In this document: positions 5,801 through 39,078 of the stretch, piece by piece
Position numbering within the stretch: position 1 is the stretch's first letter
How the letters are laid out: each line of letters opens with the position of its first letter
Source of the DNA: a virus
Reading direction: 5' to 3' (one strand)
DNA: 64,000 nt
Virus record (IMG/VR): IMGVR_UViG_3300013094_000027
Coordinates: 1 to 64,000 of that record
The notes under the pieces: model-generated
Told to the model about the DNA's origin: nothing
Seen by the model: the letters and a program-made list of their open reading frames with translations, nothing else
The model's database searches: none
Translations under genes and position numbers: made by a program

Positions 5801-8332
5801 AATTAATCTTGAAAGATTTATATCTTTATCACCTTTATTTAATTTTTCTATTGATGCTGCTGCATTTTGTAATTCTGAATAAATATAATCTGTTAAACCA
5901 CTAAGATCTTTTCTAAAAGCAATCTTATAAGCAGCATTTTGTATTTTTTTTGCACGTATTTCAATAGCTGTTTTTTCACTATTAGACATTTTATTAAAAT
6001 TACGTACTTGTTGTTTATACAAATTATTTAATTTGTCAAGTGTTTGTTGTATTTGTTCATTATCACTTTGATAAAAATGCACAATATGTGGTCTTAAATA
6101 AGCATCTTCATCTTCAAGATTTTCAAAATTAAAAGAAGATATTTTAATATCTTTTGGTATAAATCTTGCAACACCATTTTCATCATCAACATGTTCTCCT
6201 TCCAATTTTAAAGGTACCATTAAGTCAACTCTCCTATCTTTAAGACCATAAGTTTTAGCTAAAATATCTGCTAATTTATTAGATTGTTCAGTAAAAGATT
6301 TTTTACGACCTTCATCCAAACCTTCTTTGGAAAGACTTGCTATAGATTTCCAATCATATTTATCATAAGAACCATCTTTATAAATAACAAGTAAGTCTAT
6401 TGTACCAGCTAAACCAAATCCTTTAGAAAAATCATTTTTCTTTTTTTCATCAAAATAATCTCTATCTGCAATTTTTGCTTCAGGAATTATTATAACATCT
6501 TCATTTTTATAATGTTCTATGATTTCATGTACAAAATTAGCTAATTTATAATAGGTTTCTTCAGGACTTATTCTTTCTAAAGGTTCTATTTGACCATTTT
6601 TTCTTATAGTACCATCAGGATTTAAATATGATCTTAATAAGTTTTCTATATCTTTGTGTATGTCTGTACCTGCTTGTGCAATATCTAAGTTTTTTTGTAC
6701 TAATTCAGGATTTTCTTTTGCTCTAAAAGGTTTATCTATAGTAGATGTTACTGAAGAAGCAAAATGTTTTTTTTCACCATTTACATCTTCCGAATAAGTA
6801 TGCCTTCTTTGACCAAAAAGTTTATCTTTAGGATCATCAATAATACTATCATCTAAATGTAGATTTTTTTGTTCTTTTAATATTTTATTTATAGAATCTT
6901 CAGGTGTTATAGGTACTGTATTTTTATATTTAAATCTTCCTTTGTTTTGAAATACGTCTGTAAATACTTGATGATATAAATATTGTGAAGGATCTTCTTC
7001 TATATCATTTGGTTTTAAATCTTCTATATTCTTATTATCAATAATTGAACGATCACCTTTTAATATTGATTCTGCAATTGAACCTGCTTTAGCTTCAAGA
7101 GAATTTCTGTTTGTAAAACTATCAAAGAATTCTTTTATTTTGTTTATAATTCTTTGTAAAAGAGATGCGTTTTTTTCATCTTTTTTTATTTGCCATTTAT
7201 CTACAATACATTTTGCTATTAACTGATCAACAGCTTCTTTACGAACATGTTGTTCATCAGAATATAAATCTCCATATTGATCTTTAATATTTTCATAACC
7301 AGACCACAAATGAATATTCTTCATTAATTCATTTAAAACAAAATGATTTTCTCCCATTAACATTGTTATAATATGCGCTGCTTCATGTGGAATAGTATCT
7401 AATTTTGCAGGATTATTTTTATTAAGATATATGATTTTATTTAAAACATCTGCAACACCAAAACTATCTAACCCAAATCTTTGTTTAAAATCATCAATAT
7501 CTTGTATTTTTATTCCAAAAGGTTCTAAAAACTTAATTATAGTGTTATTTAAATCTTTATCTACATTTTGAATTTGATCTGAAGTTAATTTATGATAAAT
7601 AGTATTAGTATCTCTTTTTTGATCTATTTTTAAATCATTATCCGAACCTTGATTAAATTGTTTTATGTTTAAAAATTGATCTTGAGAATCAGCATTTAAA
7701 GCATGTTTAAAATAATCTTCAGGTTTAAAATCACCATAATTTGATTCTAAAGCACGTAAAATATTTATTCCTTTTGAGTGGGTAAGAATTGCCTCATCTG
7801 TAGCAATATTTCTTAAACTCTGTACAGCATTTGTAAATCTGTTATAAAATTCATTAAAAGATTCTCCACTGGGCACTTGTATATCAGGATTTTTAACATA
7901 AAATTTTTCAGGAAATTCTTTAGTAGGTCTGCTTTGAAATTTACCTAAATTCCAAGGTTTTAATCCTTCTACTGTAACAACATTTGCACCATTATATTTT
8001 TTTAATATTTCTGCTGTTTCTTGTGCACGAACTGTTGGAGAACTATAAATTGTTCTTAATTGTTTTGCATCTTCTGTTTTTGCTGTTTCAGTAGTTTCTT
8101 TTATACCTTTTGGTGCAAGACCAATTGGATTATCACCTGAATTTTTATCTTGTATATCTTCTAATGTTTCTCCATGATGAATAACATTTAGTTTTTTTGA
8201 ATCAAGTAATTTATTTGCTTGATCTAAAGTAGGTGTTTTTTCTCCATTAAGATGCCATGCTGCAAGTGCATTTCCTTCACCTAAACTATTTTCAAGATCT
8301 AAATATTCTTTGTTTTTTACAGGACAACCCAT
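2888..8332 (-). CDS. Giant ejected/polyvalent protein: histidine-phosphatase-like + zincin HExxH + PD-(D/E)xK nuclease + helical C-terminal region
   Basis: Likely start is ATG at 8332 (TAATG coupling with vRNAP stop; MGCPVKN). Motifs IHHGET/YSSPTVRAQETA/PSGESF/LTHS; PHEAAH...E; GTDIH...E...AGTIDLL...YDWKS. Position downstream of vRNAP as in crAss-like phages. Confidence 0.8.
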   Translation of the reverse strand: MGCPVKNKEYLDLENSLGEGNALAAWHLNGEKTPTLDQANKLLDSKKLNVIHHGETLEDIQDKNSGDNPIGLAPKGIKETTETAKTEDAKQLRTIYSSPTVRAQETAEILKKYNGANVVTVEGLKPWNLGKFQSRPTKEFPEKFYVKNPDIQVPSGESFNEFYNRFTNAVQSLRNIATDEAILTHSKGINILRALESNYGDFKPEDYFKHALNADSQDQFLNIKQFNQGSDNDLKIDQKRDTNTIYHKLTSDQIQNVDKDLNNTIIKFLEPFGIKIQDIDDFKQRFGLDSFGVADVLNKIIYLNKNNPAKLDTIPHEAAHIITMLMGENHFVLNELMKNIHLWSGYENIKDQYGDLYSDEQHVRKEAVDQLIAKCIVDKWQIKKDEKNASLLQRIINKIKEFFDSFTNRNSLEAKAGSIAESILKGDRSIIDNKNIEDLKPNDIEEDPSQYLYHQVFTDVFQNKGRFKYKNTVPITPEDSINKILKEQKNLHLDDSIIDDPKDKLFGQRRHTYSEDVNGEKKHFASSVTSTIDKPFRAKENPELVQKNLDIAQAGTDIHKDIENLLRSYLNPDGTIRKNGQIEPLERISPEETYYKLANFVHEIIEHYKNEDVIIIPEAKIADRDYFDEKKKNDFSKGFGLAGTIDLLVIYKDGSYDKYDWKSIASLSKEGLDEGRKKSFTEQSNKLADILAKTYGLKDRRVDLMVPLKLEGEHVDDENGVARFIPKDIKISSFNFENLEDEDAYLRPHIVHFYQSDNEQIQQTLDKLNNLYKQQVRNFNKMSNSEKTAIEIRAKKIQNAAYKIAFRKDLSGLTDYIYSELQNAAASIEKLNKGDKDINLSRLIERMRAIQTFEKDSLNKQYLEQLKDSSYTAEELNIIKNRKSTLDEYVGRAARAEKYLIEAAIKETQKLSNLANLGNITTPEQQLDFTQRWATTQSQTQMRTTQLFTRLYFQAIETSRANQEKESQPFIQNAKEIKEKYTNPIKVFKEKLLRKDYKGNYLLINNFTKEFFKAKKEMASMPTDIMKSWYENNTVFDRTRYENDLNKKQTSLKEMVDSNQITKDEMDQELELFVNKYDVGKNFENPEAIRNGAYGNKYLIGNEKWYSEEYKEILKTPELLSLYNNMIAFNKSLAQEGLIEDHQIYTFFPSVSTKMMEAKMQGENINAVDRVWEKLSNSNQELNNKKDVNPLTNEEWRELKMPFLHASDDASSQNVDITKVYTQTIESFEKYKALKNIENNVEKIIITEENKNVLVPSKGDAPSQEAFNKTNAALLKELVDLQMYGKVQDFDNSIDIAPQINKVISKIPIVNKLVHLDENRKLSTQKLINSAIQYNTVVGLAFRIKSILSNIVGGEGNISFQGKSGLYFNDRMIKNTYMKLATNDSKMKAAIKYFDFRMESHLGKELSKEAQTTKKIPNPTDILLIGHRKGDELVENHVGGSILQMYKLDDSGNIVNIRQEILHKLSAENKTISDKDLLEAVTEESKKSSLYATMKLDKDNNPYWEDSKGNKIDLDKIPTDKDGNPTAIESPYTQMRRTALQVTYKVLGNMNPEDRSGMHTLSVMKAFTSFRNWIPGQVESRTGKWKYESATDTYSVGRWREFFNNFFSGEGIGGFMKHQLLLSSLLGSEITNPGIREAAYRRYDQIKADFAKRGQDFHMSKEEYFHQSVGIIKSMMRETMITAGTLSLMLLSASIAKQVQDKNERARLNFAHKSFAKFYNEFSFYYDPREFEQLFNNTIPAIGLLKNFRNLMTNEFQEIYGSVTGNKSMLKSAHPTREAIKFIPGASSMAEIISLFDEDFRKYMGYSGNVAGYF

Positions 8333-25900: not shown

Positions 25901-25983
25901 AAAGCATAATTTAAAAACGAATAATCTAATGGTGTGACGCTAGGTGAAACTTGATCTATTTGCCCCGCTTGAAACCCTGCCAT
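22969..25983 (-). CDS. Cargo/ejection protein
   Basis: 1004 aa helical protein, TAATG-coupled to next giant gene; synteny. Confidence 0.7.
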   Translation of the reverse strand: MAGFQAGQIDQVSPSVTPLDYSFLNYALSTKESQYERGLSQVKSIYSSVLNSPLTNADNQKTREEYIADAQSGMKELSKADLSLPQNINKAGQLFAPFYQDSDIMADMYTTKGVSNNAAQINQWKTSSDKDEYAKYNPIQEEYNNQTILQLQNAKRGDGSLQKIRPRNIVPWQDKMEYLRKAVDDSGYEIEYDYATDEHGNPTPYIKKIKNGAETIPNWEIWAKSALGDKFEEQDRMVAQVGLDRYRNHIKQQNPNIADKDVDSEIAKDIIPSYTDMIQNNMKTYESNLKTYDESINELKNQAVDKNGNPRKHTPQEQQVLSQYTLAKNNIKQLQEKLKQDNSEIYNRNRDAFIERLTNNPLQYFEDLQKNKDVANFAKGITALSSVTLENNNVWSAMLTDKREREIASAKIKEEHFGNIIKGMDAGVLDENGKFISTSTNPTPIVGKDTTDVLETSDPLANYQLQMNTLKGVAVDNVLSPTGVAKALTSRNIIPMTDLPNICTSVKKLADTPFEKLSNPDKENITKLQQKLKENNVPVGNTLPELIHGINIFTQNEAKRKDLTSVQKTNIESELTSALKAETALMQYNAKDKMLKNNTKTELATNPAFKDSMVYRNVNNPDDILHADTGQKMEKDKNGNIIFQGKTYEPSAKKIDDVVSDVDFVDGYGRHQFLSRREIVDAIKNNALQVDKSHFYSEGEGPTTHTPGTLQINNKEYVINDDVAEKLQKYQKQYNENYKDFEQKLSKSVLSKMPEYADNASSRYGTVQSYIKTDQPKTTEEKKTNRFVLNASQELALPGNQKTVYDSDKKPVDPETQKAIQEALASGNYTQSASYHNIGFNGKDLWEVKLDLADKKADLDPELTWGNVKRSDLYGKSFFIEVNPSTTSRLLRSYPKDVVSRQLFSDLYNGKNIPLSPTLSSHGFDLTMIPDQADPNNIIVSGSVSTRNRNTGSFDQNPIELIFPLIGDKAKTPQEIYDYLTQEGVNHIKNNNENLRQYNQKFSN

Positions 25984-26056: not shown

Positions 26057-27964
26057 TTAATATCCATAACCATAACCATAACCATATCCACCCATAGGAC
26101 CCATATTATAATTCATATAATCATTTCCATATCCAAAACTTTCTTGTTGAAGTCCGGGATTTGATCTTCTTGTTATAGACATACTATTCATCTTCATAGG
26201 ATTATATCTTATGCTTTCTCTATCAGACATCATTTCTCTATGTGCCATATCATAAGCATCTTTATACGATGCTTTAGAATCTCTTTTTAACATGTCTTTG
26301 TATATTTCGTCTGCACGACTTGCAACACGAGAACTACCTTCTTCTAAAGACATATTTCCTGCCCCTTGTAAATCAGCTTGATAATTTGGATTTCTAAGTA
26401 TTCTTTGTGTTGTAGGGTCTATATAAAAAGGTGAGTTTGGATGCATCATATTTAACATTTGATTTGTTGCAGCATTTTGTGCAGCCATACTTCTGTCTAT
26501 TGCACCTGTTTTTAAATAATTACGCATTGATTGGTCGTAATTAAATCTTGCTGTATCAACATCTCTCGCATACTGTTGTGCATATGCTTGATGTTTATCA
26601 AATGATTCTTGTGAATATTTAGCTGCTTGTGTTTGTCCTTCATTAAAAACATTTGCTTTTTGTTTTTGTGTTTCTCCAGAAATACCTGCAAGTTTTTCCA
26701 AACCTTGTCCAATAACACCATAATTAGAACCTCTTGCTCTTGAAGAATCTCCAAACATAGAATTTGATTGCATTGCATTTGCTATAGAAGATTGCATTGC
26801 AGCAATACTTGCTCTATCATCGGGTAAAGCAACTTGTGGAATAAAAGGTACTGATTGTGCTTTAATAGGCATTCCTTGTTTAGGAACTACGGCCATATCT
26901 GCAAACATTTTCATTCTATCACTCAAACTTATTCCATACGGAGGTATGTTTGAATAAGGAGTTATTGATTGATTACTATTTATATTTCGAATGTTTGCAT
27001 TTTGTTCTGATGTAAAAGGATTTATATTTCCCATTTTTTGTTGATCATCAGATGTATTTAAATCAACCATTGATGCAGTAGGAATTTTTTGTATTTGAAC
27101 TCGGTTTGTATTATTTTTTGGTATTGCTGGTGTAGGTATACTTTGTGCAGACAAACTATGAATATTTTTTAACCCACTCATATTTACATTATTAGAATAC
27201 TGTGTATCATCAAATACATCTTTATCATAATAGGGTTTTACTATAACAGGTGATGGTTGTTGTGGAGCAACATATCCTTGATAACCCATTCTTTGATTAC
27301 CAATACCACTATCAGACATTCCTGCTTGAGCTTTAGGTAAAAAACCACCATATTTAGCTTGAGCAACTCCTTTCTTATCAACATTAACTATTTCAGGTAT
27401 TCCTGTTGGAAATCCTTTACTTGCTTCTTGTACTATTGCTAAACCTCCTAATTTTTGCTGATATGATTGTATCATTTTTTCAGCAGTTGCTTTTTTTAGA
27501 TCATCTGAATCAGGATCATCAGCTATTGCACGATATTTATTTATATCGTATTGTTTTGCTAATTGAGCAGGTGTAAATTTTTTATTGGTGTTTGCATTTT
27601 TACCAAACATTTCTAAAATAGGTCCACCTATAGCAAGTTTTTTAAAATCACTAAAAATGAAATCTCCGGGTTCTGCTTGCAATGGAGTACCTCCTTCATA
27701 GTGTTTTTTACCACCTATATCAAAAGTATTAAGATCACCTGATTGTGATTTTCTTGCAAGCACTTCACCTTTTTCTGCTTCAACTGTTGCTTGATCTCTA
27801 GGAACAGCTTCCATAGTAGAAGTTGCTTTAAAAGGTTCTTTTAGAGACATGGTGGGGTCAAAGACACGACCTCCAGTATCGAGAGCCCATCCCGATTGGT
27901 TCGAGAAACCTGCTTTTCTTTGTGGTCTTTCTGATGGTGCTGCCATCACTTTTATTTTCGCCAT
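26057..27964 (-). CDS. Cargo protein with ExExGE...GxxHxxGG...FIFSD module
   Basis: 635 aa; VEAEKGE...GGKKHYEGGTPL...DFIFSD, AKYGG linker, low-complexity Q/M/N region, GYGYGYGY tail. Confidence 0.7.
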   Translation of the reverse strand: MAKIKVMAAPSERPQRKAGFSNQSGWALDTGGRVFDPTMSLKEPFKATSTMEAVPRDQATVEAEKGEVLARKSQSGDLNTFDIGGKKHYEGGTPLQAEPGDFIFSDFKKLAIGGPILEMFGKNANTNKKFTPAQLAKQYDINKYRAIADDPDSDDLKKATAEKMIQSYQQKLGGLAIVQEASKGFPTGIPEIVNVDKKGVAQAKYGGFLPKAQAGMSDSGIGNQRMGYQGYVAPQQPSPVIVKPYYDKDVFDDTQYSNNVNMSGLKNIHSLSAQSIPTPAIPKNNTNRVQIQKIPTASMVDLNTSDDQQKMGNINPFTSEQNANIRNINSNQSITPYSNIPPYGISLSDRMKMFADMAVVPKQGMPIKAQSVPFIPQVALPDDRASIAAMQSSIANAMQSNSMFGDSSRARGSNYGVIGQGLEKLAGISGETQKQKANVFNEGQTQAAKYSQESFDKHQAYAQQYARDVDTARFNYDQSMRNYLKTGAIDRSMAAQNAATNQMLNMMHPNSPFYIDPTTQRILRNPNYQADLQGAGNMSLEEGSSRVASRADEIYKDMLKRDSKASYKDAYDMAHREMMSDRESIRYNPMKMNSMSITRRSNPGLQQESFGYGNDYMNYNMGPMGGYGYGYGYGY

Positions 27965-27983
27965 AATATTATTTTAAAATTTA

Positions 27984-28015
27984 TTTGTAAATATCATAAA
28001 AAATTTGTACCTTTG
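27984..28015 (+). promoter_or_regulatory. Bacteroidota-type promoter oriented antisense to the lysozyme gene
   Basis: TTTG (27984-27987), 20 nt, TACCTTTG (28008-28015), intergenic. Confidence 0.65.
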
Positions 28016-28020
28016 CTCGC

Positions 28021-28066
28021 ACAAACAATCTCTTCAATAGAGCTTACAAAGCTACAAACAATCTCT
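28021..28066. repeat. 13-bp direct repeat ACAAACAATCTCT
   Basis: Copies at 28021-28033 and 28054-28066. Confidence 0.8.
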
Positions 28067-28526
28067 ACGAATAAAACAGAGAAATTTCTTTTTCTCTGCG
28101 TTTAGTTAAACCATCAACTACATTGCCTCCTGCATGATTCCATGCCATCCAGGATTGTTTTATTACATCTGGTGTAGCTTCATCGTTTATGTTTCTTGCA
28201 AGAGAAGATTTTGCAAATGCATTGCAACCAATATTATATACAAAACATCCTAACGCATCTATCATATGTTGATTAATATTTGTTTTGATTGTTTTTTGAA
28301 TGCAAGGTAAGAAATTTTTATTTAAATTGCAAAGTAATATTTGATTAGCGTAATCTTTTGAAATAGCTTTATCTTCTAATGTTACTTTTGTGCCGTCACA
28401 ATAATAAGTTGATCCGTATCCTATAGTTGGGATGCCGACTATATCTTTGTAAGGTGCTGCTTTGTATCCTTCACATGAAGCGATTAAGTTAATACAATCT
28501 TGTGAAAATTTTAATGTGTTGTCCAT
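28065..28526 (-). CDS. Lysozyme / endolysin (GH24 family)
   Basis: EG..APYKDIVGIPTIGYG catalytic E/D/T motif, YNIG, GLTKRREKE C-terminal motif. Confidence 0.93.
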   Translation of the reverse strand: MDNTLKFSQDCINLIASCEGYKAAPYKDIVGIPTIGYGSTYYCDGTKVTLEDKAISKDYANQILLCNLNKNFLPCIQKTIKTNINQHMIDALGCFVYNIGCNAFAKSSLARNINDEATPDVIKQSWMAWNHAGGNVVDGLTKRREKEISLFYS

Positions 28527-28538
28527 ATAGTTTTAGTT

Positions 28539-29789
28539 TTACATTTTTTGAATTTTGTATCCTAGTTTTTGAAGTCTTGCAATTTCTTCGTCTGAAATAT
28601 CATATTCACCACCAACTTCATATTCTCTTAACATCATACCACCTTGTTGTGCCATCATTTGTGGAGCAAAATAACCTGCATTTTGAAAACCATAAGCACC
28701 TGTTGGACCTGTTAAATTCATTTGACCATAACCTTGACCACTGATTCCTATTTCTCCTTTGCTGCCTGGTGTTGGATAATACATGTCGTTTGTTTGACCA
28801 TGTTGCATTAAATAATTTTGATAGTTGCGTGTTTTTTGATTTTGATTCATCATATAACCAATACCACTAAATAATCCTGCTGCAGAAGCAATTGCCGAAA
28901 GACCATAATGAGGATTTGATTGTTGTCCTGTTTCTTGTTCTGAATCATTACTCATTTGTTGTGGATGTGTTACAGGCATATCGTGCATTGCTGCTTGAGG
29001 TATATAAGAAATATTTTGTTTTTGTCGTGTAACTCCTGGTTGATTTTGACCATAATTAATATTAGGATGATGATAAGGATCATTACCTGTATTATAATTT
29101 ATTGCTACTGGTGGTGCTTTTTTTACTGATTCTTCTTCAGAAGTTTCACCACCATCTTCTTTTTTATGGAATCCGTGATGTTTTTTAAATGTTTGTGTAA
29201 GTCTCCATTGAGGACTTCCTTTAGGACAATCATAGTTTGGTGATCCTGGAGTACAACGACCAGGATGTTTAATAGCATCTTGAATCCAATGTCCTCCTTT
29301 TTTCATTTCTTCACATTCAGGACATTCACCACCTTCTTGTTTAAGAGGTTTATATTTTGAAGATTTTTTATATAAAGATTTGCCTGTTCCTTCATCAATC
29401 ATAGTACCACCTTCTTGATAATAACCATTTGTTCCAAGATCATATGTACCTGAATATTGACCACCTTTTTTTAAAGTTTGAGGAACATCGGTATAAGCAC
29501 CTGATTGTATAGGAAAAGGTACTTGTGAAGGTCTTTTATTACCAGAACCTCTTTTTTCTATTACATTGCGAAATTTATTATCAATACTTCTATCTTCAGG
29601 AAGTGCTTGATTTTGTTCTACATTTAATTGACCCCCTGCTTTATAAGAAGAATTTGTAGAAGTATCCCATGTATAAGAACCTCCTGTTCTCATATGTGGA
29701 TAATCTTTAAAAAAAGATTCTTTATCTGGATATTTGGAATAAAATTCTTTTTTATTTTTTATTCCTGCTTCTTTCATGAATGGATGCAT
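28539..29789 (-). CDS. Internal virion/cargo protein made of micro-modules separated by xxGG linkers
   Basis: 416 aa with nine GG-ended motifs; basic WIQDAIKHPG...RLTQTFKK module; one Gly/Ala hydrophobic helix. Confidence 0.7.
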   Translation of the reverse strand: MHPFMKEAGIKNKKEFYSKYPDKESFFKDYPHMRTGGSYTWDTSTNSSYKAGGQLNVEQNQALPEDRSIDNKFRNVIEKRGSGNKRPSQVPFPIQSGAYTDVPQTLKKGGQYSGTYDLGTNGYYQEGGTMIDEGTGKSLYKKSSKYKPLKQEGGECPECEEMKKGGHWIQDAIKHPGRCTPGSPNYDCPKGSPQWRLTQTFKKHHGFHKKEDGGETSEEESVKKAPPVAINYNTGNDPYHHPNINYGQNQPGVTRQKQNISYIPQAAMHDMPVTHPQQMSNDSEQETGQQSNPHYGLSAIASAAGLFSGIGYMMNQNQKTRNYQNYLMQHGQTNDMYYPTPGSKGEIGISGQGYGQMNLTGPTGAYGFQNAGYFAPQMMAQQGGMMLREYEVGGEYDISDEEIARLQKLGYKIQKM

Positions 29790-29793
29790 ATTA

Positions 29794-32700
29794 TTAAAAT
29801 TTATTTATTGCTGGATGTGGATTATATGTACTACGATCAACTTTTTTTTGAGTTCTTCCTTTATATTGTCTTTTTTTAGTATTGGGTAATGCAACAGGTT
29901 GTTCATCTTGATTTAACCAATCATATTGTTGTGGTTGTTGTTGTTCACCACCTTGTTGCTTTATATCACCACCATACTTCTTAGCCCAACCTCTTTCAGT
30001 TGGTAGTTTCTTTTCATATACAGGCAAAACAAATTGATCAGTATCTTTAGGGCCTTTAAGAACTTTTTGTTTACCTATTGCATCTATAATGGCTACAGGA
30101 ACTTGTGGGTTATCTAATCCTCTAAAAGTTGTTTGTTGTCCATTTCCTGGGAAGTACATTTCATTTCCCATAGTAGGATCATTTAAGCCTATGTATTTTT
30201 GAAAATGAGTTAATGGTACTGTTGGTCCACCCATTTGTTTTTTAGGTATAGAACCTCCGTATTTATTTTTATTCATAAAAAACTTATCATTTAAAAGATC
30301 AGTCATTTTTATAGGTTTTAAAAATAAATCTTCTGATTTACTTTTATTATACTGATTTACTCCTGCATCATAATCCTCTTTTTTAATAGGAATTCCATTT
30401 CTTTTATAAGTAGGTATTTGTCTAATTTTACCTGATTTTGTTTTATTTTTATTTATATAATATTCATATTGATCTCCATTTACTTTGAAAGATGGTGTTA
30501 TTTTTTGTTTGTCTGCTTGAGTTAATGCTCTATCTGGTTGATTATAAGTTCTTCCAAATTCTCCATTATCAAAAGTAGGCTCATGTCTCTCTGTAATTCC
30601 TAAATCTTTTAACATTTGAGGATTGTCAAATCCTAACATTTTTTGTGCCCTTGTATATCCTTTTAGTTGAATAGGCTTCAACTGTTTATTAAAAATATCA
30701 GCATCAGAACTATTTAATATTTCATTATACTTTTGAGCATTCCAATCAGGGTGTCCTTCTAAAGCAGATATAAGATTCTCTGGTATACTCTCATCTCTTA
30801 AAGGAACTTCTACTTTATTACCCCTATATTCATCAATATAGTATTCTGGTTTAAAAGGTTTATCATTAAACCACGCATTTGCTTGTTCTGATTGTAATCT
30901 GTCTCTATCTCCTTTGATTATATTAAACCTATTTTTAATTTTATCATTAATTGTTTTTAACTGTTCTGATGCTTTTTGATTAGCTTCTAAATATTTAGCT
31001 TTATTAGGATCTTCATATGGAATATTATATTGACTACCATACTCGTCTGTAACAGTTCTATAGTTTTTAAAGTTTAATTCATGAGGATTAGTTTTTACAT
31101 TATCCGAAATAATAGGGTAACCTCTTTCATCTAATTCTTGTCCTACATTATATATAGGAACTGTTTTAGGATCAATCTCTGTAACAAAAGGCATAGGAGT
31201 ATTACCCTTTGTTTTCTTTATAGTAGACATTGGGAATCCTCCTGTATAAGGTATGTGTTCTGCTGTTTGTACTATGGGAGCTTCTTTTGCAGCAGCTTTC
31301 ATATAGTTATATGGGTTAAACATTTCTCCAATAGTTCCTGCCGTAACTACTTTATCAGCAAAATCTGCTGCAACATTCCATTTGTTTTTAGGGTCTTGCA
31401 TTTCAGAAGTTACCTGTGCTTGTTTCTGGAGTTCATCCCAATCTACCATACCATGTTGTTGGGCATATTGATCTCTTACCCATTGGGGAGTATCTTGTGC
31501 TTTTTTTATATATGTTGGTGCAGGAGCATGATAACTTTGTAACCAATCGTTATAACCTAACTCCTGAAGTTGTTTGGCTGATTGATCGTCTCTACTTGGT
31601 TGTTTAAGGTAAGGTGTGGGTAGTGTGCCTCCTGTTTGATATTTTTGTAACCATCCTCCATTTCTTTTCTCTGGTATCCATTGATTCTCCTGTCCTGGTA
31701 AAAACCCTCTTTTATAGAAACCTTCCGGTCTTTCTAAATCATATGAACCTTTTTCTGGGTTAAATTTTGTTTTAGGGGATAACCATTCAGGACCATTGGG
31801 ATTAAGACTATTAATATCTACAGGGGATTGCTTTGTGTTGTAATTTATTGGTAAATCTTGAAAAGGTTGATTAGGTTGTTTATTTATATCTATACCTTTT
31901 TTGTATAAAATAGGTTGTATAGGCTTTTTATATACAACGTTTCCAGCATTATTCCCTTTATTCCTTTCTTCAAAAATAGGTAATATTTTCCTATGTGCTA
32001 AATCAGGTGAGCTTTCTGCATTATTCCAATAATAATTTTTATCTTTGTTTATTAATGCATTTCCTACTTTTTGTAATATTTGATCCTTTCTGTCACCTTC
32101 TAAAACAGAAGTACTGTCTGCTCCTAGTCTATTGTGGTTATTTCTAATTAAATTAACAAAATTATTATACCTTTCTAAATCCTCTTTACTGTCTGCTTTC
32201 CTCCAATCTTCTCTAGGATTATTATTTAAAAAAGGTATTCTTGTACCAGGCTCAATGCCTTCTAAAGATTCTTGTAATTTTGTATAATTATAAAGATTTA
32301 AACTATCATTATAACTTCTCAATCTTGGGTCATTAGGATCATGAGTTATAATAGGAGGTAATTGACCTCCTTGTTGCATCTTAGATTGTGTATTCTTAGT
32401 ACTATACTTATCCAGCCATCCCATATCAATTATCTTTAAACTTGTTATCGAATGGGTTGATTGATCATCTCTGCTTGGTTGTTTTAGGTAAGGTGTGGGT
32501 AGTGTGCCTCCTAATTGTTTTTTGGGTAATTCTACTCTACGCATCCAATCAACAGGTATAACTTTATCAATACTATCTTGTCTTATTATAGGAGATTTAT
32601 AAACAGAATTGCCCTTACTATCTATGTGCTCAAATTGAATTTTAGACCAATCTATTTTAGGAGAATCTATTGGAGTTGGTAAATATTGTTGTTTAGAAGG

Positions 32701-34071
32701 TTCTGATTTTTTAGAATTATTTTGTTTTAATTTTTTAATAGATTGTGCGGTTGTAGGTTGTTGTACAGGAAAAGGTATTGTATCTGATACAGTAGTAGTA
32801 TCAGAAGGTTGTATTTGATCATCTCTTTTATCTGTTTGAGTTGTTAGGTATTGTAATGGATTAGTGGGGTGATTAGGGTTATGAAAATCGAAACCTTTTG
32901 CAAATAATTCTAATTGTGCATCTTGTAAATCTCTAGCTATTTGATCGTGTACCCATGTATGAGGATCCAAACTATAATCACTAGGTAAATGATCAGCATT
33001 TACACTATAAGTTTTTCCACTTTTTGATGTATATGTAGAATTATTTTTTATACCTCCTTGAGAAGGTTTATCTATAAAATCATCGTTAAATAATTTATGT
33101 TCAGGCAAAGTATTATCTCCTACATATTCACCTTCTTCAAATATTGGTTTTTGAAACTGTTGCTTCCATTGATGTTCTGGTTTTAATACACGTTCCCCTC
33201 GTTGAAAAGGTTCATACTGTTTTGAATCTATTTCATCAAACTGTTTTAAATCATTTTTTGCTGTGTTTATTCTATCTTTTATATTATTTAATGTCTTTTG
33301 ATCCTCTGTTGAAAATTTTGCTTTTTTTATTTGTTCTATCTCTGTTTGAGATAATTTTCTTGATTTAGGAGTCCCATATAATTTATTAGGTGTACCATCG
33401 CTATTAAATGGCTGATCCCCGAAAATGCTTCCATGAGTGTATTCATTTACTACAGGATTACCATTTTCATCAAATTCTGAAAAATATGGTTTATCTCTAT
33501 AAAATTGTGCTCCATATTGGTTTACATGACTAGGTGTAGCAAATTTACCTTCTAAAGGTTTAGGAAAAAAAGAGTTTTGAAATTCGTTACTAACTCCTTT
33601 TATAGCCCCTACATCCATAAGGGTATTTATAAACTTATTTGGTAAGTTCTGAGTACTGTCTCTAAAATGCTCTAATGTTGCAGTTCTTTTAGCGGCATCT
33701 AAATAGGTCATTGGGTTTAAAACATCTATAGCAGCATCATATTTATTCCTATCTGCCATTCTATTAAAATAATCAGGCAAATTACCATAATCATTATAAA
33801 ATTGAATAGCAGTCATAGGATTACGTACAATATCACCAATTTTGTTTATTAAAGGTCTTTTAGGCTGAGAGGGTTGTACCTGCATATTATCCTGTTTGGT
33901 TTTCATATCCATTACATTCAACCATTGAGAATCTAAAGGAGGTAATTTAGGTGCAATATATTTAGTAGGTACTTCTTCTTTTGTACCTCCTTGTTGAAGA
34001 CGACTTAACAAACCTCCTTTTTTGTATTTTCCTTTCCATCCTGTCAGATCGAAATATTCATGGTACTTCAT
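29794..34071 (-). CDS. Mosaic cargo protein with repeated GG linkers
   Basis: 1425 aa directly after muzzle gene (TAATG coupling); KKGG, QQGG, QLGG, RNGG, QTGG, KYGG, QMGG motifs; duplicated GGTLPTPYLKQPSRDDQS. Confidence 0.75.
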   Translation of the reverse strand: MKYHEYFDLTGWKGKYKKGGLLSRLQQGGTKEEVPTKYIAPKLPPLDSQWLNVMDMKTKQDNMQVQPSQPKRPLINKIGDIVRNPMTAIQFYNDYGNLPDYFNRMADRNKYDAAIDVLNPMTYLDAAKRTATLEHFRDSTQNLPNKFINTLMDVGAIKGVSNEFQNSFFPKPLEGKFATPSHVNQYGAQFYRDKPYFSEFDENGNPVVNEYTHGSIFGDQPFNSDGTPNKLYGTPKSRKLSQTEIEQIKKAKFSTEDQKTLNNIKDRINTAKNDLKQFDEIDSKQYEPFQRGERVLKPEHQWKQQFQKPIFEEGEYVGDNTLPEHKLFNDDFIDKPSQGGIKNNSTYTSKSGKTYSVNADHLPSDYSLDPHTWVHDQIARDLQDAQLELFAKGFDFHNPNHPTNPLQYLTTQTDKRDDQIQPSDTTTVSDTIPFPVQQPTTAQSIKKLKQNNSKKSEPSKQQYLPTPIDSPKIDWSKIQFEHIDSKGNSVYKSPIIRQDSIDKVIPVDWMRRVELPKKQLGGTLPTPYLKQPSRDDQSTHSITSLKIIDMGWLDKYSTKNTQSKMQQGGQLPPIITHDPNDPRLRSYNDSLNLYNYTKLQESLEGIEPGTRIPFLNNNPREDWRKADSKEDLERYNNFVNLIRNNHNRLGADSTSVLEGDRKDQILQKVGNALINKDKNYYWNNAESSPDLAHRKILPIFEERNKGNNAGNVVYKKPIQPILYKKGIDINKQPNQPFQDLPINYNTKQSPVDINSLNPNGPEWLSPKTKFNPEKGSYDLERPEGFYKRGFLPGQENQWIPEKRNGGWLQKYQTGGTLPTPYLKQPSRDDQSAKQLQELGYNDWLQSYHAPAPTYIKKAQDTPQWVRDQYAQQHGMVDWDELQKQAQVTSEMQDPKNKWNVAADFADKVVTAGTIGEMFNPYNYMKAAAKEAPIVQTAEHIPYTGGFPMSTIKKTKGNTPMPFVTEIDPKTVPIYNVGQELDERGYPIISDNVKTNPHELNFKNYRTVTDEYGSQYNIPYEDPNKAKYLEANQKASEQLKTINDKIKNRFNIIKGDRDRLQSEQANAWFNDKPFKPEYYIDEYRGNKVEVPLRDESIPENLISALEGHPDWNAQKYNEILNSSDADIFNKQLKPIQLKGYTRAQKMLGFDNPQMLKDLGITERHEPTFDNGEFGRTYNQPDRALTQADKQKITPSFKVNGDQYEYYINKNKTKSGKIRQIPTYKRNGIPIKKEDYDAGVNQYNKSKSEDLFLKPIKMTDLLNDKFFMNKNKYGGSIPKKQMGGPTVPLTHFQKYIGLNDPTMGNEMYFPGNGQQTTFRGLDNPQVPVAIIDAIGKQKVLKGPKDTDQFVLPVYEKKLPTERGWAKKYGGDIKQQGGEQQQPQQYDWLNQDEQPVALPNTKKRQYKGRTQKKVDRSTYNPHPAINKF
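31579..32512. repeat. 55-bp direct repeat flanking an in-frame 879-bp module
   Basis: Copies at 31579-31633 and 32458-32512, 3 synonymous mismatches. Confidence 0.92.
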
Positions 34072-37000
34072 TATCTTATACTTTCTTGATTATTAGATTT
34101 TGATAAATATAATTGTAATCTACTGCCATTAGGGTTATTTTTTTTTAAGAAGATTTTTGCAAATTCTCCTCTGAATTTTTTTCTTTGTATTTGTTCTTTA
34201 TTATAATTCAAAGCATCAATATTTAAAGAAAAATCAACACCGTTATCACTTGTTATAATAGATTGTTGTTGTGCATTTGAATATTCCCCTCTGTCATTAG
34301 TAATATCCCAAAATTGTGATATTCTGTATTTACGTTCTTTAAATCCATATAGAATATCTATACTTGAAGTATTTACATTTGGATAATTAATTTCTAAATA
34401 AGGGTTTGCAGGTTTAGGATTTAAATTTAATAATCCACTACATTGCTCATTATTATAAACAATAAGATTATCAAAATTATTATCATATTCTAAAAATCTA
34501 TCCCATCCATTAGCTTTATAAATCCATGTATCTAAATAGTATTCTATGTTTTTTAGAGTTGTAAAATTATTTGGTGCTGTGTTTATAATATATTCAATAC
34601 TCATTTCATATTGAACACCATAATAATTTGCAAATAAATCTGTTCTTTGATTATGTGTCCAAAGTGCATTATTTTTACTTGTTATATTATGATTTCTTGC
34701 TGTAATAGAAAAATCAGGAAACCAACTATGATAACTTAACCAACAATCATTTTTACAATCATAAGAAACTGTCCAAGAGCAATCTTCAAAAAACTGAGTA
34801 TCTGTAAAAGGAATTGGTTTTTTAATGCTTTGTTCTGTTCCTAAAGTATCATAAAACAAACCATTACTAAGCTGAATTGCTTTTAAATTAATTGCTTTAT
34901 AATCTTTTTTAGAAACATATAAAATGTCATTAGTCTCATCATATGAGATCTGCATACCAACACCAGCAATAGGGTTATCATATAAAGGATAATTAGGAAA
35001 TTGTTGTAATAAATAAGAAGGCATATATTTTGCAAACCACCATTTAAGACCTTTTGCAGAAATTTCATCTAATGTTTCGCCTTTTCTAAAGACTTTACCC
35101 GATGCTTGAGAAACCCAAAATAAACCATGTGGTGTATTTAAAGCACTATATTTAGACTTAGTATTTCCATAATTAATTCCTTTTTCTGTATTAACTACAT
35201 TTTGTAAAGGTTGGTTAAATAAACCACCGTCACCAATTGTTATTTGCGTTGTAGTTGACTCACCTTGTTCAAGAACTTGAACACCTGTAAATTCTACAGG
35301 AGAGGATTCATCCATTAAAAAGATTGCACCTGTTTTAGAAACAGGTTTTATTGCTCTAACAGGAGTTGTAAAATCATAATAATTATTTGGCAAAAATTGT
35401 TTCCAATTATCAATTGTTAATTCTTCAGTTTGTGGTAAAGAGTATATAACTCGTCTAGGATAATAATTATCACAACTGTAAGCAAGAATAGGATCATAAT
35501 CATATGATAAAGTTTGACCAAATGAAATATATTGAGTATAAAATTTGTTTACAGAAAGCGAATAATCATATTTATAAAAAGGATCTGATTTTATTATGTC
35601 TGATCTAAATAATCTACTTAAATCTGAAAAGCCATAAGGGTCATAAAATTTTTGTGCATCTAAATCACCATAATCTCTAAAGCCTACATTAACATCAGAT
35701 TCTACATAAAAATCACGTACACCATTACAGAACAAATAAAAATTACCTGAATCAACATAAAAAGCAGAACCTAATAAATTATATCCTGTTTGTTCGTTAT
35801 CTAATCTTCTATAATTAGAAGCAAAATTTATTAAATGACCCGGCACTTGATAATTATCAATCCAAAAACCAGGATAAGGTACATTTATATAATCACGATA
35901 ATTATACATGTAATCTTCAACAACATCAATAAGCCAATCATTAAAAAATAACATTGGATTTTTTTCAGTATATCTGTTTATATATGTATCGCCACCAAAA
36001 AGTACTGGTGTAGAAGTTCCTGTTAAAGGACCATTAGAGATTAATAATTCTTTTACAGAATATATTTGTCCGTATTGTGAAGGCATATTTAATTTCAATC
36101 CTGTGTAATAACAAGAAGTTGAAGTATATGCCTGATTTGTACCACCATTAGGATTTTGTGATATTGTATATCTTGTTACATCTTTTGGTACACCATAATT
36201 TGCATCAGGTGCAGGTAAAGAATTACTAATAGCAAGTGCAACAAAACTATTGCGATACAAATTGTTTATTTCAAAACTGTTAAACATTTGCACCCTACTA
36301 TCTACATATTGATAATCATTTACATTACTAAGAGACCAATTATTATTTCCTAAATATTGATATTCGTTATAATAAGAATGACCGTTAAATTGAGCAGCAT
36401 ATTGTTTTGCCGGTATAAGACCTTTAATTACTCTATATATTTGTTCTTCTACCATTGCTGTTTGCATAGGCAACATTGCAGCAGCTAATGCTATATTAGC
36501 TACTTTATAAGCAACATACGCAGCTTCACTAAGAACACCAGTAGCATCTGAAGGATAAGTTATTGGACCACCTATTAATGTTGTCCAAGGCATACTGTCT
36601 GTTCCTGTTAATTGAACATTATATGAACCTCCTGCAGCAATTCCTGTTATTGTTGAAAAATCTACTAGTAATGCAACAAGTGTAGAAAGAATACTATCAA
36701 AATTAGTTGCAACTTTAAACATAGGATGTTTATAAGGTGTTTCAAAAATACCTTGTTGCAAACCATAAATTGCCTGATATACTTTTAATTGAGGTGAACC
36801 TAAGAAAGGTTTTTCAAAAACTGTATCTGGTGAATGAAAAGAATAATGTTCAAATAATATATTTTTATTATATGGATAAGCACTTCCGCCACCTAACCAA
36901 TTATTTGAAGTATTACCGTTTGTTCCACCTAAAGTTATTTGATTTATATTATATGTTAAATAAGGATCTGGTCGTAAATCATTTGCAGGATAATTTTGAA

Positions 37001-38729
37001 AAAGTCCAAATTGTTGTGATACACCTGCAACACCTGTACCATATATAGGATATTGGCACATGTTGTTTATTATACCTTTAGCAATAATAGATTTTTGACC
37101 TTCTCTAGAGCCTCTAAGTATTTCATAACCAACAATAGTTGTAATTACATTACCATGATTATCTACTGGAGGTTGTATATTATTAAATTGAACACCAAGT
37201 ACATTTATATATGCTGAATTAGGAGTTCTTGGTGTAAAGTGAGATACTCCTGAAACAGTTTGATCTGGAAATTTATGATGTCTAATAAATTGTCCACATA
37301 AATCCCATTCAGGATGTCCTGCAACATTTGCATTATATACTAAAGGTTGATCTGAAGGATACTGTTCTGTTGATTGCCAATAACCCATTAAACCTGTAAC
37401 AATCACTACACCACCATCAGGTAATGTAGAAGTAGCTGTAGATAATATAGAAGCTGTATTTTGTACAGACCAATTTAAATCGGTACTTGCATTATATGCT
37501 CTACCGGGTATATGATAAGAAGCACTTTTATCACCTGTATTATATATCCATCTTATAAAAAAACAATATTGTTCATCTGACATATAACTATAATTATTGC
37601 CAGAAAAATATTGTGTTGTTCCCGGTACTAATGCTGTACCTTGATAATATTTTTCAGGATACTGTACAAGCACCCATTCTGCATTTATTTGATTTGCAAG
37701 TGGTTGATAATTAAAATCAGGTCTTTCACTTATTCCACTACGAATAAGATAATTATTTACAGCCCAAATTGTATCTGATTTTTCAAAATGAGGTGTTTGT
37801 AAAGGCAATGTGTTTAAACTAACAACAGGTAGCGTTGTATTAATACTATCAATATGAATGGTAGATTCTGTTGTATAATATAATCCTAATTGACGTGCAA
37901 CTAATTGTCCATTATTATAACTTATAATAGCAATGATCATTTCTTCAAAATGAGTAGTGTCTGCATTTTGAATATTTAAAACTAAAGCACCTGCAATATT
38001 ATTATGGCTAAAAATAGCTTGAGTATTAGAAAATACTACATAATCAGTAACTTTAATTCCGTTTTGTGCATATGCCAAAGCAACCTGATAAGTACCATTT
38101 TCTAAAGTTCCTGCTGTTTGCGATTTATTTAATGTTATATTAGGAACATTTACTAAAGGAGCTAATTGTATATTATTACAATTTAATACGTCTGTATTTA
38201 CACAAGTAGTACAAGTTGTTGGTGGTGTACCTGTAGTAGTACAATTTTGAATCCAAATAAGATTATTTACATTAGAAGTATTTGTATCTACATATCTGTC
38301 AGGATTTCTTTTTCCGTCAGACCAATAAACATTAAAACCACAATCATAATTTCTTCTTGCAGCACCTGTTATAGGATTTGTTGTACTAAAATTAAGGCAA
38401 GGACAATTAGAAAATTTTGTATAAATACAATTATCTGTGTCCACAATACCTATTTCTGAATTACCGCTTATAGTGGGATCTAAAGAAGAGTTATCTGTGC
38501 AAAAAACCATCCATAAAGCTCCATCTAAAGGTATGGCTCCAATTAATTGATATGGTAAATTTACACATAATTGATTAGCACTTTCCGTAGAAAGTGTTAA
38601 TTGATCACCAGATTGAGTTGAATTAATAACATTTTTTGCAAAAGTCCACATTTCAGGATTTTGCAAATATGTTACTAAATCTCTATATAAACCTTTAGTG
38701 AATTTATTATTTGTTTCTGGATTAGGCAA
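34071..38729 (-). CDS. Tail muzzle / tail stabilization protein
   Basis: 1552 aa beta-rich; N-terminal FTKGLYRD, YWSDG.RNP, C-terminal WTVSY...WLSYHSW and KKFRG; position after tube gene as in crAss-like phages. Confidence 0.8.
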   Translation of the reverse strand: MPNPETNNKFTKGLYRDLVTYLQNPEMWTFAKNVINSTQSGDQLTLSTESANQLCVNLPYQLIGAIPLDGALWMVFCTDNSSLDPTISGNSEIGIVDTDNCIYTKFSNCPCLNFSTTNPITGAARRNYDCGFNVYWSDGKRNPDRYVDTNTSNVNNLIWIQNCTTTGTPPTTCTTCVNTDVLNCNNIQLAPLVNVPNITLNKSQTAGTLENGTYQVALAYAQNGIKVTDYVVFSNTQAIFSHNNIAGALVLNIQNADTTHFEEMIIAIISYNNGQLVARQLGLYYTTESTIHIDSINTTLPVVSLNTLPLQTPHFEKSDTIWAVNNYLIRSGISERPDFNYQPLANQINAEWVLVQYPEKYYQGTALVPGTTQYFSGNNYSYMSDEQYCFFIRWIYNTGDKSASYHIPGRAYNASTDLNWSVQNTASILSTATSTLPDGGVVIVTGLMGYWQSTEQYPSDQPLVYNANVAGHPEWDLCGQFIRHHKFPDQTVSGVSHFTPRTPNSAYINVLGVQFNNIQPPVDNHGNVITTIVGYEILRGSREGQKSIIAKGIINNMCQYPIYGTGVAGVSQQFGLFQNYPANDLRPDPYLTYNINQITLGGTNGNTSNNWLGGGSAYPYNKNILFEHYSFHSPDTVFEKPFLGSPQLKVYQAIYGLQQGIFETPYKHPMFKVATNFDSILSTLVALLVDFSTITGIAAGGSYNVQLTGTDSMPWTTLIGGPITYPSDATGVLSEAAYVAYKVANIALAAAMLPMQTAMVEEQIYRVIKGLIPAKQYAAQFNGHSYYNEYQYLGNNNWSLSNVNDYQYVDSRVQMFNSFEINNLYRNSFVALAISNSLPAPDANYGVPKDVTRYTISQNPNGGTNQAYTSTSCYYTGLKLNMPSQYGQIYSVKELLISNGPLTGTSTPVLFGGDTYINRYTEKNPMLFFNDWLIDVVEDYMYNYRDYINVPYPGFWIDNYQVPGHLINFASNYRRLDNEQTGYNLLGSAFYVDSGNFYLFCNGVRDFYVESDVNVGFRDYGDLDAQKFYDPYGFSDLSRLFRSDIIKSDPFYKYDYSLSVNKFYTQYISFGQTLSYDYDPILAYSCDNYYPRRVIYSLPQTEELTIDNWKQFLPNNYYDFTTPVRAIKPVSKTGAIFLMDESSPVEFTGVQVLEQGESTTTQITIGDGGLFNQPLQNVVNTEKGINYGNTKSKYSALNTPHGLFWVSQASGKVFRKGETLDEISAKGLKWWFAKYMPSYLLQQFPNYPLYDNPIAGVGMQISYDETNDILYVSKKDYKAINLKAIQLSNGLFYDTLGTEQSIKKPIPFTDTQFFEDCSWTVSYDCKNDCWLSYHSWFPDFSITARNHNITSKNNALWTHNQRTDLFANYYGVQYEMSIEYIINTAPNNFTTLKNIEYYLDTWIYKANGWDRFLEYDNNFDNLIVYNNEQCSGLLNLNPKPANPYLEINYPNVNTSSIDILYGFKERKYRISQFWDITNDRGEYSNAQQQSIITSDNGVDFSLNIDALNYNKEQIQRKKFRGEFAKIFLKKNNPNGSRLQLYLSKSNNQESIR

Positions 38730-39078
38730 TTTTTATATTTTTTGAAATTAAAAAATTGTATATTTTTTCTGTTATATAACCTACTATATAAGCTTTTGTT
38801 TCTTCATCTTTTATAGATGAATCATTTAAAATGTGTTCTGTAACATGTAATATCTCATGTGAAATATAATAATTGGTTATATATTTATCTTTTATGATGA
38901 TAAAATAATCTGCATTTTTTAAACAAAAAGTTACAGCAGCAGCATCTCCATCATAATCGTGCATTTGTTCATTACGTTTTTTAAGTAATGTTTTTATTTT
39001 CTTTTTTATATCTGACACTATATAAAAATAAATATCACTTTTTAAAAAGTCTATTTTTATTTTTGTTTGTAGATACAT
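38722..39078 (-). CDS. Small zincin-like HExxH protein
   Basis: ISHEILH...DEETKAY motif. Confidence 0.7.
   Translation of the reverse strand: MYLQTKIKIDFLKSDIYFYIVSDIKKKIKTLLKKRNEQMHDYDGDAAAVTFCLKNADYFIIIKDKYITNYYISHEILHVTEHILNDSSIKDEETKAYIVGYITEKIYNFLISKNIKIA

Follow-up and report, generated by a model that had tools for sequence, protein, structure and literature searches.

The window analysed here comprises 64,000 nucleotides (positions 1 to 64,000) of the 92,018-bp IMG/VR virus record IMGVR_UViG_3300013094_000027, from an uncultured phage; the record is estimated by CheckV to be 76% complete. Nearly all genes of the record are carried on the minus strand, and the subject of this report is three of them, encoding proteins A (P0001, 1425 residues), B (P0002, 416 residues) and C (P0003, 635 residues), together with the short glycine-rich motifs that recur in these proteins. 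The gene order at the locus is ring 2, ring 1, a 118-residue HExxH protein, a muzzle-like protein, A, B, a GH24 lysozyme, C, a 1004-residue protein and three giant proteins of 2410, 2464 and 1817 residues; rings 2 and 1 were recognized by matches to PF25702 and PF24228 respectively. The phage is of the marine, crAss-like type. In phage crAss001 the genes that follow the muzzle gene encode cargo packaged in the particle (PMC10172136), and A, B and C occupy this same position between the muzzle-like protein and the giant RNA-polymerase-associated proteins, as a preliminary description of the sequence had proposed; the counterpart in Cellulophaga phage phi17:2, gp041, is annotated as a virion structural protein, and A and B are probably carried in the particle.

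Two motifs were originally distinguished in these proteins, a glycine pair in the context [K/Y/M]xxGG and the hexapeptide G-W-x-x-K-Y. Every copy given in the preliminary description is present, namely ten xxGG pentapeptides and four G-W-x-x-K-Y in A, nine pentapeptides in B and one in C, and A has two further GG sites at residues 339 and 944. Measured against 5000 composition-preserving shuffles, GG preceded by K, Q or R within two residues occurs 11 times in A where the shuffles give 2.0 (p<2e-4) and 7 times in B where they give 2.15 (p=0.006), whereas the 2 copies in C do not differ significantly from the 1.5 of the shuffles. G-W-x-x-K-Y is found four times in A versus 0.01 in shuffles. The form [KQ][KQ]GG occurs seven times in A, B and C together and is absent from the remaining 26,098 residues of the 92-kb genome, which bears out the claim that the neighbouring giant proteins lack this density of motifs. 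Both motif types prove to be parts of one composite unit, GG-x(5-8)-GG with an inner segment x-Phi-x-K-x-Q-x, that comes in two flavours, W-L-x-K-Y-Q and x-V/L-P-K-A-Q, and of which A has four copies (0.06 in shuffles). A literature search found no paper that contains the tag strings or describes the motif.

The W-L-x-K-Y flavour, referred to below as the tag, is linked to one particular neighbouring gene. An unbiased DNA-pattern scan of IMG/VR with the back-translated unit yielded 24 loci, in almost all of which a muzzle homologue lies just upstream. All 13 of the complete motif-bearing proteins terminate in W-L-x-K-Y plus at most one residue, and two of them begin with the tag as well; tags are found at residues 3-10 and at the extreme C-terminus, while internal copies continue into Q-x-GG or other sequence. 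The gene that lies 1-20 nt downstream of the tag-ended protein begins in 13 of 14 loci with the same module (alignment A2) that starts B, even where the muzzle proteins are only ~25% identical. The conserved length of this module is about 33 residues, and in the window it is 63% identical to its counterpart in the related locus L021. AlphaFold2 (AF2) draws confident small folds in B at residues 1-33 and in the last 22 residues (395-416), with disorder between them. The association also holds in the reverse direction: a search of IMG/VR with A2 returned 214 loci, of which 80 were fetched and their open reading frames of at least 100 residues counted. Exactly one tag-ended frame was present in 78 of the 80 loci (none in the other 2), always upstream of B and on the same strand, so that 78 of 422 frames were tag-ended and 0 on the other strand. 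It was directly adjacent to B in 71 loci and in 7 stood 0.6-1 kb upstream, an inserted or fused gene intervening. Three loci (L089, L096 and L101, at about 6671-7100) have an in-frame fusion of a small tag-type protein with B; the tag position there reads N-I-K-K-S, with the W and Y lost, and a separate tag-ended protein is still found 1 kb upstream.

Selection on the tag acts at the level of the protein and not of the DNA. Within one protein, tag copies share codons no more often than codon usage alone would lead one to expect (codon identity 112 against 100.7 expected), and the nucleotide identity of the B module is 0.81 at codon positions 1 and 2 versus 0.61 at position 3. The tag is therefore neither a DNA-level recombination signal nor a by-product of the start region of the next gene; translation initiation is further ruled out as its source by the internal and N-terminal copies and by a gap to the next start of 1-27 nt. 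Likenesses to choline-binding (GW-type) repeats, sortase LPxTG signals and transglutaminase sites were weighed and dropped as superficial.

In relatives the first protein terminates in this peptide immediately ahead of the conserved start of the following one, which gives the peptide the look of an uncut docking tag and not of a protease site. On the strength of the sequence comparisons we infer tentatively, as the likeliest of the readings considered although one slightly more likely to fail than to hold, that the motifs are uncut docking handles on flexible tethers and that the tag of A binds the start module of B, linking the cargo that is ejected first. The motifs would then be short docking peptides on flexible glycine tethers, borne by virion-packed proteins that are the first to leave, the W-L-x-K-Y flavour ending A in this phage group and internal copies being placed at module joints. 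The likeliest partner of the tag would be the three-helix start module of B (here residues 1-37); A, B and a C1-like protein might form an ordered chain without covalent links in the tail and portal region and exit in that order, and the modules between the handles would be free for swapping. Several points weigh against such docking. The window's own A lacks an intact terminal tag, which is degenerate and followed by a 34-residue extension (residues 1392-1425), yet B retains its start module; only the internal handles are therefore intact here and this phage is an atypical member. The structure predictions covered single chains only, and one of them (A residues 480-1425, AF2 run without an alignment) is uninformative, with a mean predicted local distance difference test score (pLDDT) of 35. 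Tag variants and B-module variants co-vary only by clade, and so this is not independent evidence. Neighbouring conserved gene ends could mean conserved synteny or recombination anchors rather than contact, and the plain Phi-x-x-G-G is too short for a partner to be deduced from it and may act simply as a turn or hinge, one copy being a hairpin turn in the AF2 model.

The placement of the motifs at joints is seen when module content is compared across relatives. Among 24 proteins, homology breakpoints fall within 5 residues of a motif in 24% of cases versus 6% at random, in agreement with the earlier proposal that module boundaries lie at the motifs, which in addition mark the ends of proteins. 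Residues 564-843 of A are homologous to residues 505-780 of the A protein of L021, with a motif at the corresponding start in both and a conserved GG-W-L-x-K-Y-Q-x-GG unit about 30 residues before the match ends. Members of the B family differ in the module enclosed by M-K-K-G-G and other GG pairs, while these pairs themselves do not vary. The Cys/His micro-domain that lies between two such pairs in B has two Cys, several His and a C-x-x-C ahead of it, is not in Pfam and probably binds zinc, judging from these residues; it recurs in 57 metagenomic proteins with 75-85% identity and at any position, i.e. within the first 8 residues in 9 of the 57, with GG no more than 2 residues upstream in 27 cases, and standing alone in several proteins of 38-74 residues. 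Such breakpoints and swaps would suit passive seams, that is Gly-Gly hinges or turns at which recombined micro-modules join and which provide flexibility for storage in the tail and threading through it without any specific partner, as would the predicted coil or disorder in which the motifs lie and the finding that crAss001 cargo must unfold to pass the tail (PMC10172136). However, a hinge would call for neither conserved W, L, K, Y and Q nor a position at the extreme terminus of a protein, the tag goes together with a single specific neighbouring module, and no conservation at the DNA level marks a recombination site; passive seams are a rather unlikely explanation.

Docking by uncut handles is also at variance with the suggestion that A and B are polyproteins cleaved at the motifs, whether behind GG or inside the unit, by a protease of the phage or the host at assembly or after injection. 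Phi-x-x-G-G does resemble the GG-type sites of adenain, African swine fever virus (ASFV) pS273R, Ulp-type and C39 proteases, and natural C-termini that follow W-L-x-K-Y might look like cleaved ends. The phage encodes three HExxH proteins, and among the polyvalent proteins of phages and conjugative elements the injected ones with zincin domains are said to process themselves, a proposal reportedly made by Iyer et al. in 2017. However, PF02902, PF00770, PF03412 and PF04586 have no match at E<=1 in the 76%-complete 92-kb record, i.e. no C48, C5, C39 or S78 peptidase (clan CE, C39 or HK97-type prohead protease) was detected in it; tags at residues 3-10 and at the exact C-terminus would make poor cut sites, their cleavage freeing few residues; and the natural ends follow K-Y-[K/N] and not GG. 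The 118-residue HExxH protein (P0125), put forward earlier as a candidate processing enzyme, fares no better, having no homologue in any of the 106 related loci, including the six that cover its position. It is a member of a family of small viral proteins without a named fold, for which the nearest named cluster, Peptidase_M78 at 0.88, is only a lead, and it is neither assignable to a recognized zincin family nor conserved alongside the motif system; its paralogue of 121 residues is encoded at 76474-76839, outside the window and far from the structural genes. Three GG pairs (426-448) lie inside the segment 425-552 of gp45 that is resolved in mature crAss001 virions, so that these at least are intact there, and the crAss001 papers make no mention of processing. 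In a mass fingerprint of the published crAss001 gel bands 1-9 (Shkoporov 2018) gp49, gp44, gp47 and gp50 were identified, control band 4 containing gp49 and gp44, and gp45 scored no better than reversed decoys; its absence at 85-100 kDa could speak for cleavage, weakly, as the lower bands (11-13) are outside the data. No support for cleavage was thus found, and processing at the motifs appears unlikely. Nor did delivery of many small effectors find support, since no module has a recognizable enzymatic domain and the smallest resemble binding or zinc micro-domains. As to the alternative of a capsid-loading signal, a tag fits the comparative data, but not one of general use in capsid loading, because the giant cargo proteins are without it.

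The handles might instead bind outside the cargo chain, to the inner wall of the tail barrel or muzzle, to packaged DNA, or to a component of the host envelope after ejection. The ring proteins of crAss001 are docking sites for short helices of gp45, and an unassigned helix of 14 residues sits on its muzzle (PMC10172136); W, K and Y are typical of interfaces or of the membrane interface, and a lysozyme in the block fits a role in crossing the envelope. An outside partner is nonetheless improbable, as it would leave unexplained both the tie of the tag to the start module of the next gene and the decay of the tag upon fusion. Docking between successive cargo proteins may in turn extend beyond A and B. 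A second junction pattern is seen at the genes after B (L028-L107), where the type of the B tail matches the type of the next gene's start: a tail of N-G-S-I-V-K-A-I-K-N-L type is followed ~87 nt later by a gene starting M-A-S-F-T-D, a tail of G-Y-x-I-E-Y-L-D type is followed 4-5 nt later by a P0003-type start, and a third pair exists too. It is conceivable, although doubtful, that these junctions make up a peptide coupling code in which each packed protein carries an end tag that the start module of its successor grips: the start of B would take the A tag, and a C1-like or C2-like start the end of B. If so, the ejected proteins would form a non-covalent train whose packing and exit order is written in the gene ends, internal tags would let extra copies attach, and any module between tags would be carried along. 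The crAss001 structure paper ventured the guess that cargo-cargo interactions set the order (PMC10172136).

Few known phages are as abundant as Crassvirales and their marine relatives, and a conserved portable tag with a candidate receptor module makes the way in which their large cargo is loaded, ordered and ejected accessible to testing. A docking tag would explain how modules can be freely swapped without lost incorporation, and might be put to use for bringing foreign proteins into particles. In annotation, these fast-evolving genes are better recognized by the tag and the B start module than by whole-protein similarity.

Features of the cargo block and its surroundings (window coordinates; residue numbers refer to the protein named).
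Feature	Position	Strand	Basis or remark
Muzzle-like protein, 1552 residues; upstream anchor of the cargo block	34071..38729	-	phrog_37948; PF25729 at 23.4 bits, below cut-off
Protein A (P0001), 1425 residues, encoded directly after the muzzle; six motif clusters along a string of modules	29794..34071	-	gene call, motif scan, shuffles
A unit 1, residues 11-29: N-terminal G-W-x-x-K-Y, then GG-x7-GG; relatives likewise begin with the tag	33985..34041	-	
A unit 2, residues 516-522: K-Q-L-G-G, then first copy of the 18-residue repeat	32506..32526	-	
A unit 3, residues 548-569: G-W-L-D-K-Y ... M-Q-Q-G-G; module common to L021 begins here	32365..32430	-	
A unit 4, residues 800-815: canonical GG-W-L-Q-K-Y-Q-T-GG	31627..31674	-	
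A unit 5, residues 1268-1282: K-Y-GG-x7-GG, P-K-x-Q flavour; module shared with P0005 stops here	30226..30270	-	
A unit 6, residues 1361-1375: G-W-A-K-K-Y-GG-x5-GG	29947..29991	-	
A degenerate terminal tag, residues 1383-1391 (D-W-L-N-Q)	29899..29925	-	aligns with the W-L-K-N-Y-stop end of the L021 protein
Protein B (P0002), 416 residues, mostly disordered, nine Phi-x-x-G-G motifs	28539..29789	-	
B N-terminal module, residues 1-37: three short helices, M-R-T-G-G at end; conserved start of the gene after tag-ended proteins	29679..29789	-	pLDDT 78-90; alignment A2
B Cys/His micro-domain, ~45 residues, within residues 161-214, exactly between invariant M-K-K-G-G and K-E-D-G-G	29148..29309	-	
B C-terminal end, residues 379-416: GG-x8-GG unit and conserved terminal helix	28542..28655	-	
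GH24 lysozyme (P0004), 153 residues, inserted between B and the next cargo protein	28065..28526	-	PF00959, E 2e-33
Protein C (P0003), 635 residues, conserved core cargo protein	26057..27964	-	420 homologues
C residues 202-215: K-Y-GG-x-L-P-K-A-Q-x-G unit, position conserved in the family	27320..27361	-	
HExxH protein (P0125), 118 residues, first candidate protease of the preliminary description	38722..39078	-	HExxH motif; no Pfam family
HExxH at residue 319 of the 1817-residue giant, second candidate	7373..7387	-	Pfam finds only His_Phos_1, residues 54-196

Protein A evolves fast. A word-based protein search of 5.8 billion proteins gave a single homologue, P0005, which carries the tag at both its start and its end although only residues 943-1269 of A are common to the two. 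No match to GenBank phages was obtained by megablast and tblastn with the region and P0001, nor were related loci found when P0001 alone or the muzzle protein alone was the query; P0001 and P0002 have no Pfam or PHROG domain, and the large modules of P0001 have no Atlas match. Just past two of the GG motifs of A lies a 75-nt direct repeat, 87% identical (31576-31650 and 32455-32529), which encodes an identical stretch of 18 residues (521-538 and 814-831) and looks like an internal duplication or gene conversion beside the seams. Many A proteins of related loci (L004, L007, L011, L013-L015 and L020) begin with a C-x-C...C-x-x-C module of ~38 residues resembling a zinc ribbon, with the tag directly after it, a further sign that the smallest modules may be metal-stabilised.

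In the family of protein C most members have Phi-x-x-GG at four fixed positions including residues 13-19, the first of which is missing from the window's C. The middle of C is rich in Q, N, S and M and of low complexity, and its C-terminus (26060-26104) is a run of G-Y repeats; a related tail of aromatic residues, Gly and Asp closes most family members and may be a further conserved end signal. C is the probable counterpart of crAss001 C1 (gp45). PF25725 (crAss_CARG1), which scores 222 bits with gp45 itself, has no match in P0001-P0003 at E<=0.1 and in 0 of 31 members of the P0003 family at E<=1, and membership of C1 at the Pfam level was rejected on these grounds; hhalign of the family alignment A1 against gp45 gave 36 columns at E 0.013 with a probability of 3%, and common short motifs are visible by eye.

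Homologues of the muzzle-like protein were found at 92 loci, and the nearest cultured relatives by this protein (24-27% identity) are the Cellulophaga phages phi17:2 and phi4:1, Flavobacterium Fpv-type phages and a Leptolyngbya phage. The GH24 lysozyme is absent from all related loci fetched; one member of the P0003 family (P0118) has a fused GH24 domain, and phi17:2 gp042 begins with a tail-lysozyme domain. At its N-terminus the 1004-residue protein (22969-25983) resembles crAss001 gp46 (C2), with its M-A-x-F start, and the products of the genes that follow class-1 B proteins; Pfam does not assign the 1004-residue protein to CARGO2. One of the giants is weakly similar to a region of crAss001 gp50, and the 1817-residue giant (2888-8341) has an N-terminal histidine-phosphatase domain (PF00300, E 5e-20, residues 54-196).

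Among known systems, the polyvalent proteins are likewise large, rapidly shuffled multi-module proteins delivered with the DNA, and the relative P0005 has an HExxH module; unlike them, the modules of P0001 and P0002 are without recognizable effector domains, and a conserved junction or end peptide is not part of their description. Encapsulin cargo-loading (targeting) peptides and the capsid-targeting sequence of the T4 internal proteins are short terminal peptides on a flexible linker that bring unrelated proteins into an HK97-fold shell, the T4 signal being removed by the prohead protease. As in the present proteins, the body of such cargo is free to vary. Here, however, the tag is carried by the first post-muzzle protein only and not by all cargo, it is also internal, its best candidate partner is another cargo protein rather than the shell, and no prohead protease was found in the record. 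The ejectosome or internal core proteins of T7 (gp14-16), P22 and N4-like phages such as DEV (PMC11445570) are kept inside the virion, leave it ahead of the DNA and are accompanied by a cell-wall hydrolase, as would be the case for A and B. The counterpart of the hydrolase here would be the GH24 lysozyme of the block, with P0118 as a fused form. Unlike A and B, ejectosome proteins are folded and conserved and are not made of swappable micro-modules, and they are not known to share end tags.

The remaining comparison is with crAss001 gp45 (PMC10172136; PF25725). crAss001 lacks proteins A and B, the terminal W-L-x-K-Y tag and the B start module, and gp45 differs in its PF25725 domain, to which P0001-P0003 have no Pfam match; the motif is not discussed in the crAss001 paper (PMC10172136). 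The likenesses are several. The gene of gp45 likewise follows that of the muzzle, and the N-terminal parts of gp45 and of the P0003 family are alike. A further likeness is that gp45 is long and flexible, with short stretches of ordered chain that dock on the portal and on the rings of the tail (PMC10172136). Furthermore, gp45 has Phi-x-x-GG sites of its own, which flank its ordered segments 214-245 and 425-552, and one GG-W-L-x3-GG unit that opens the portal-bound domain (PF25725, residues 424-555).

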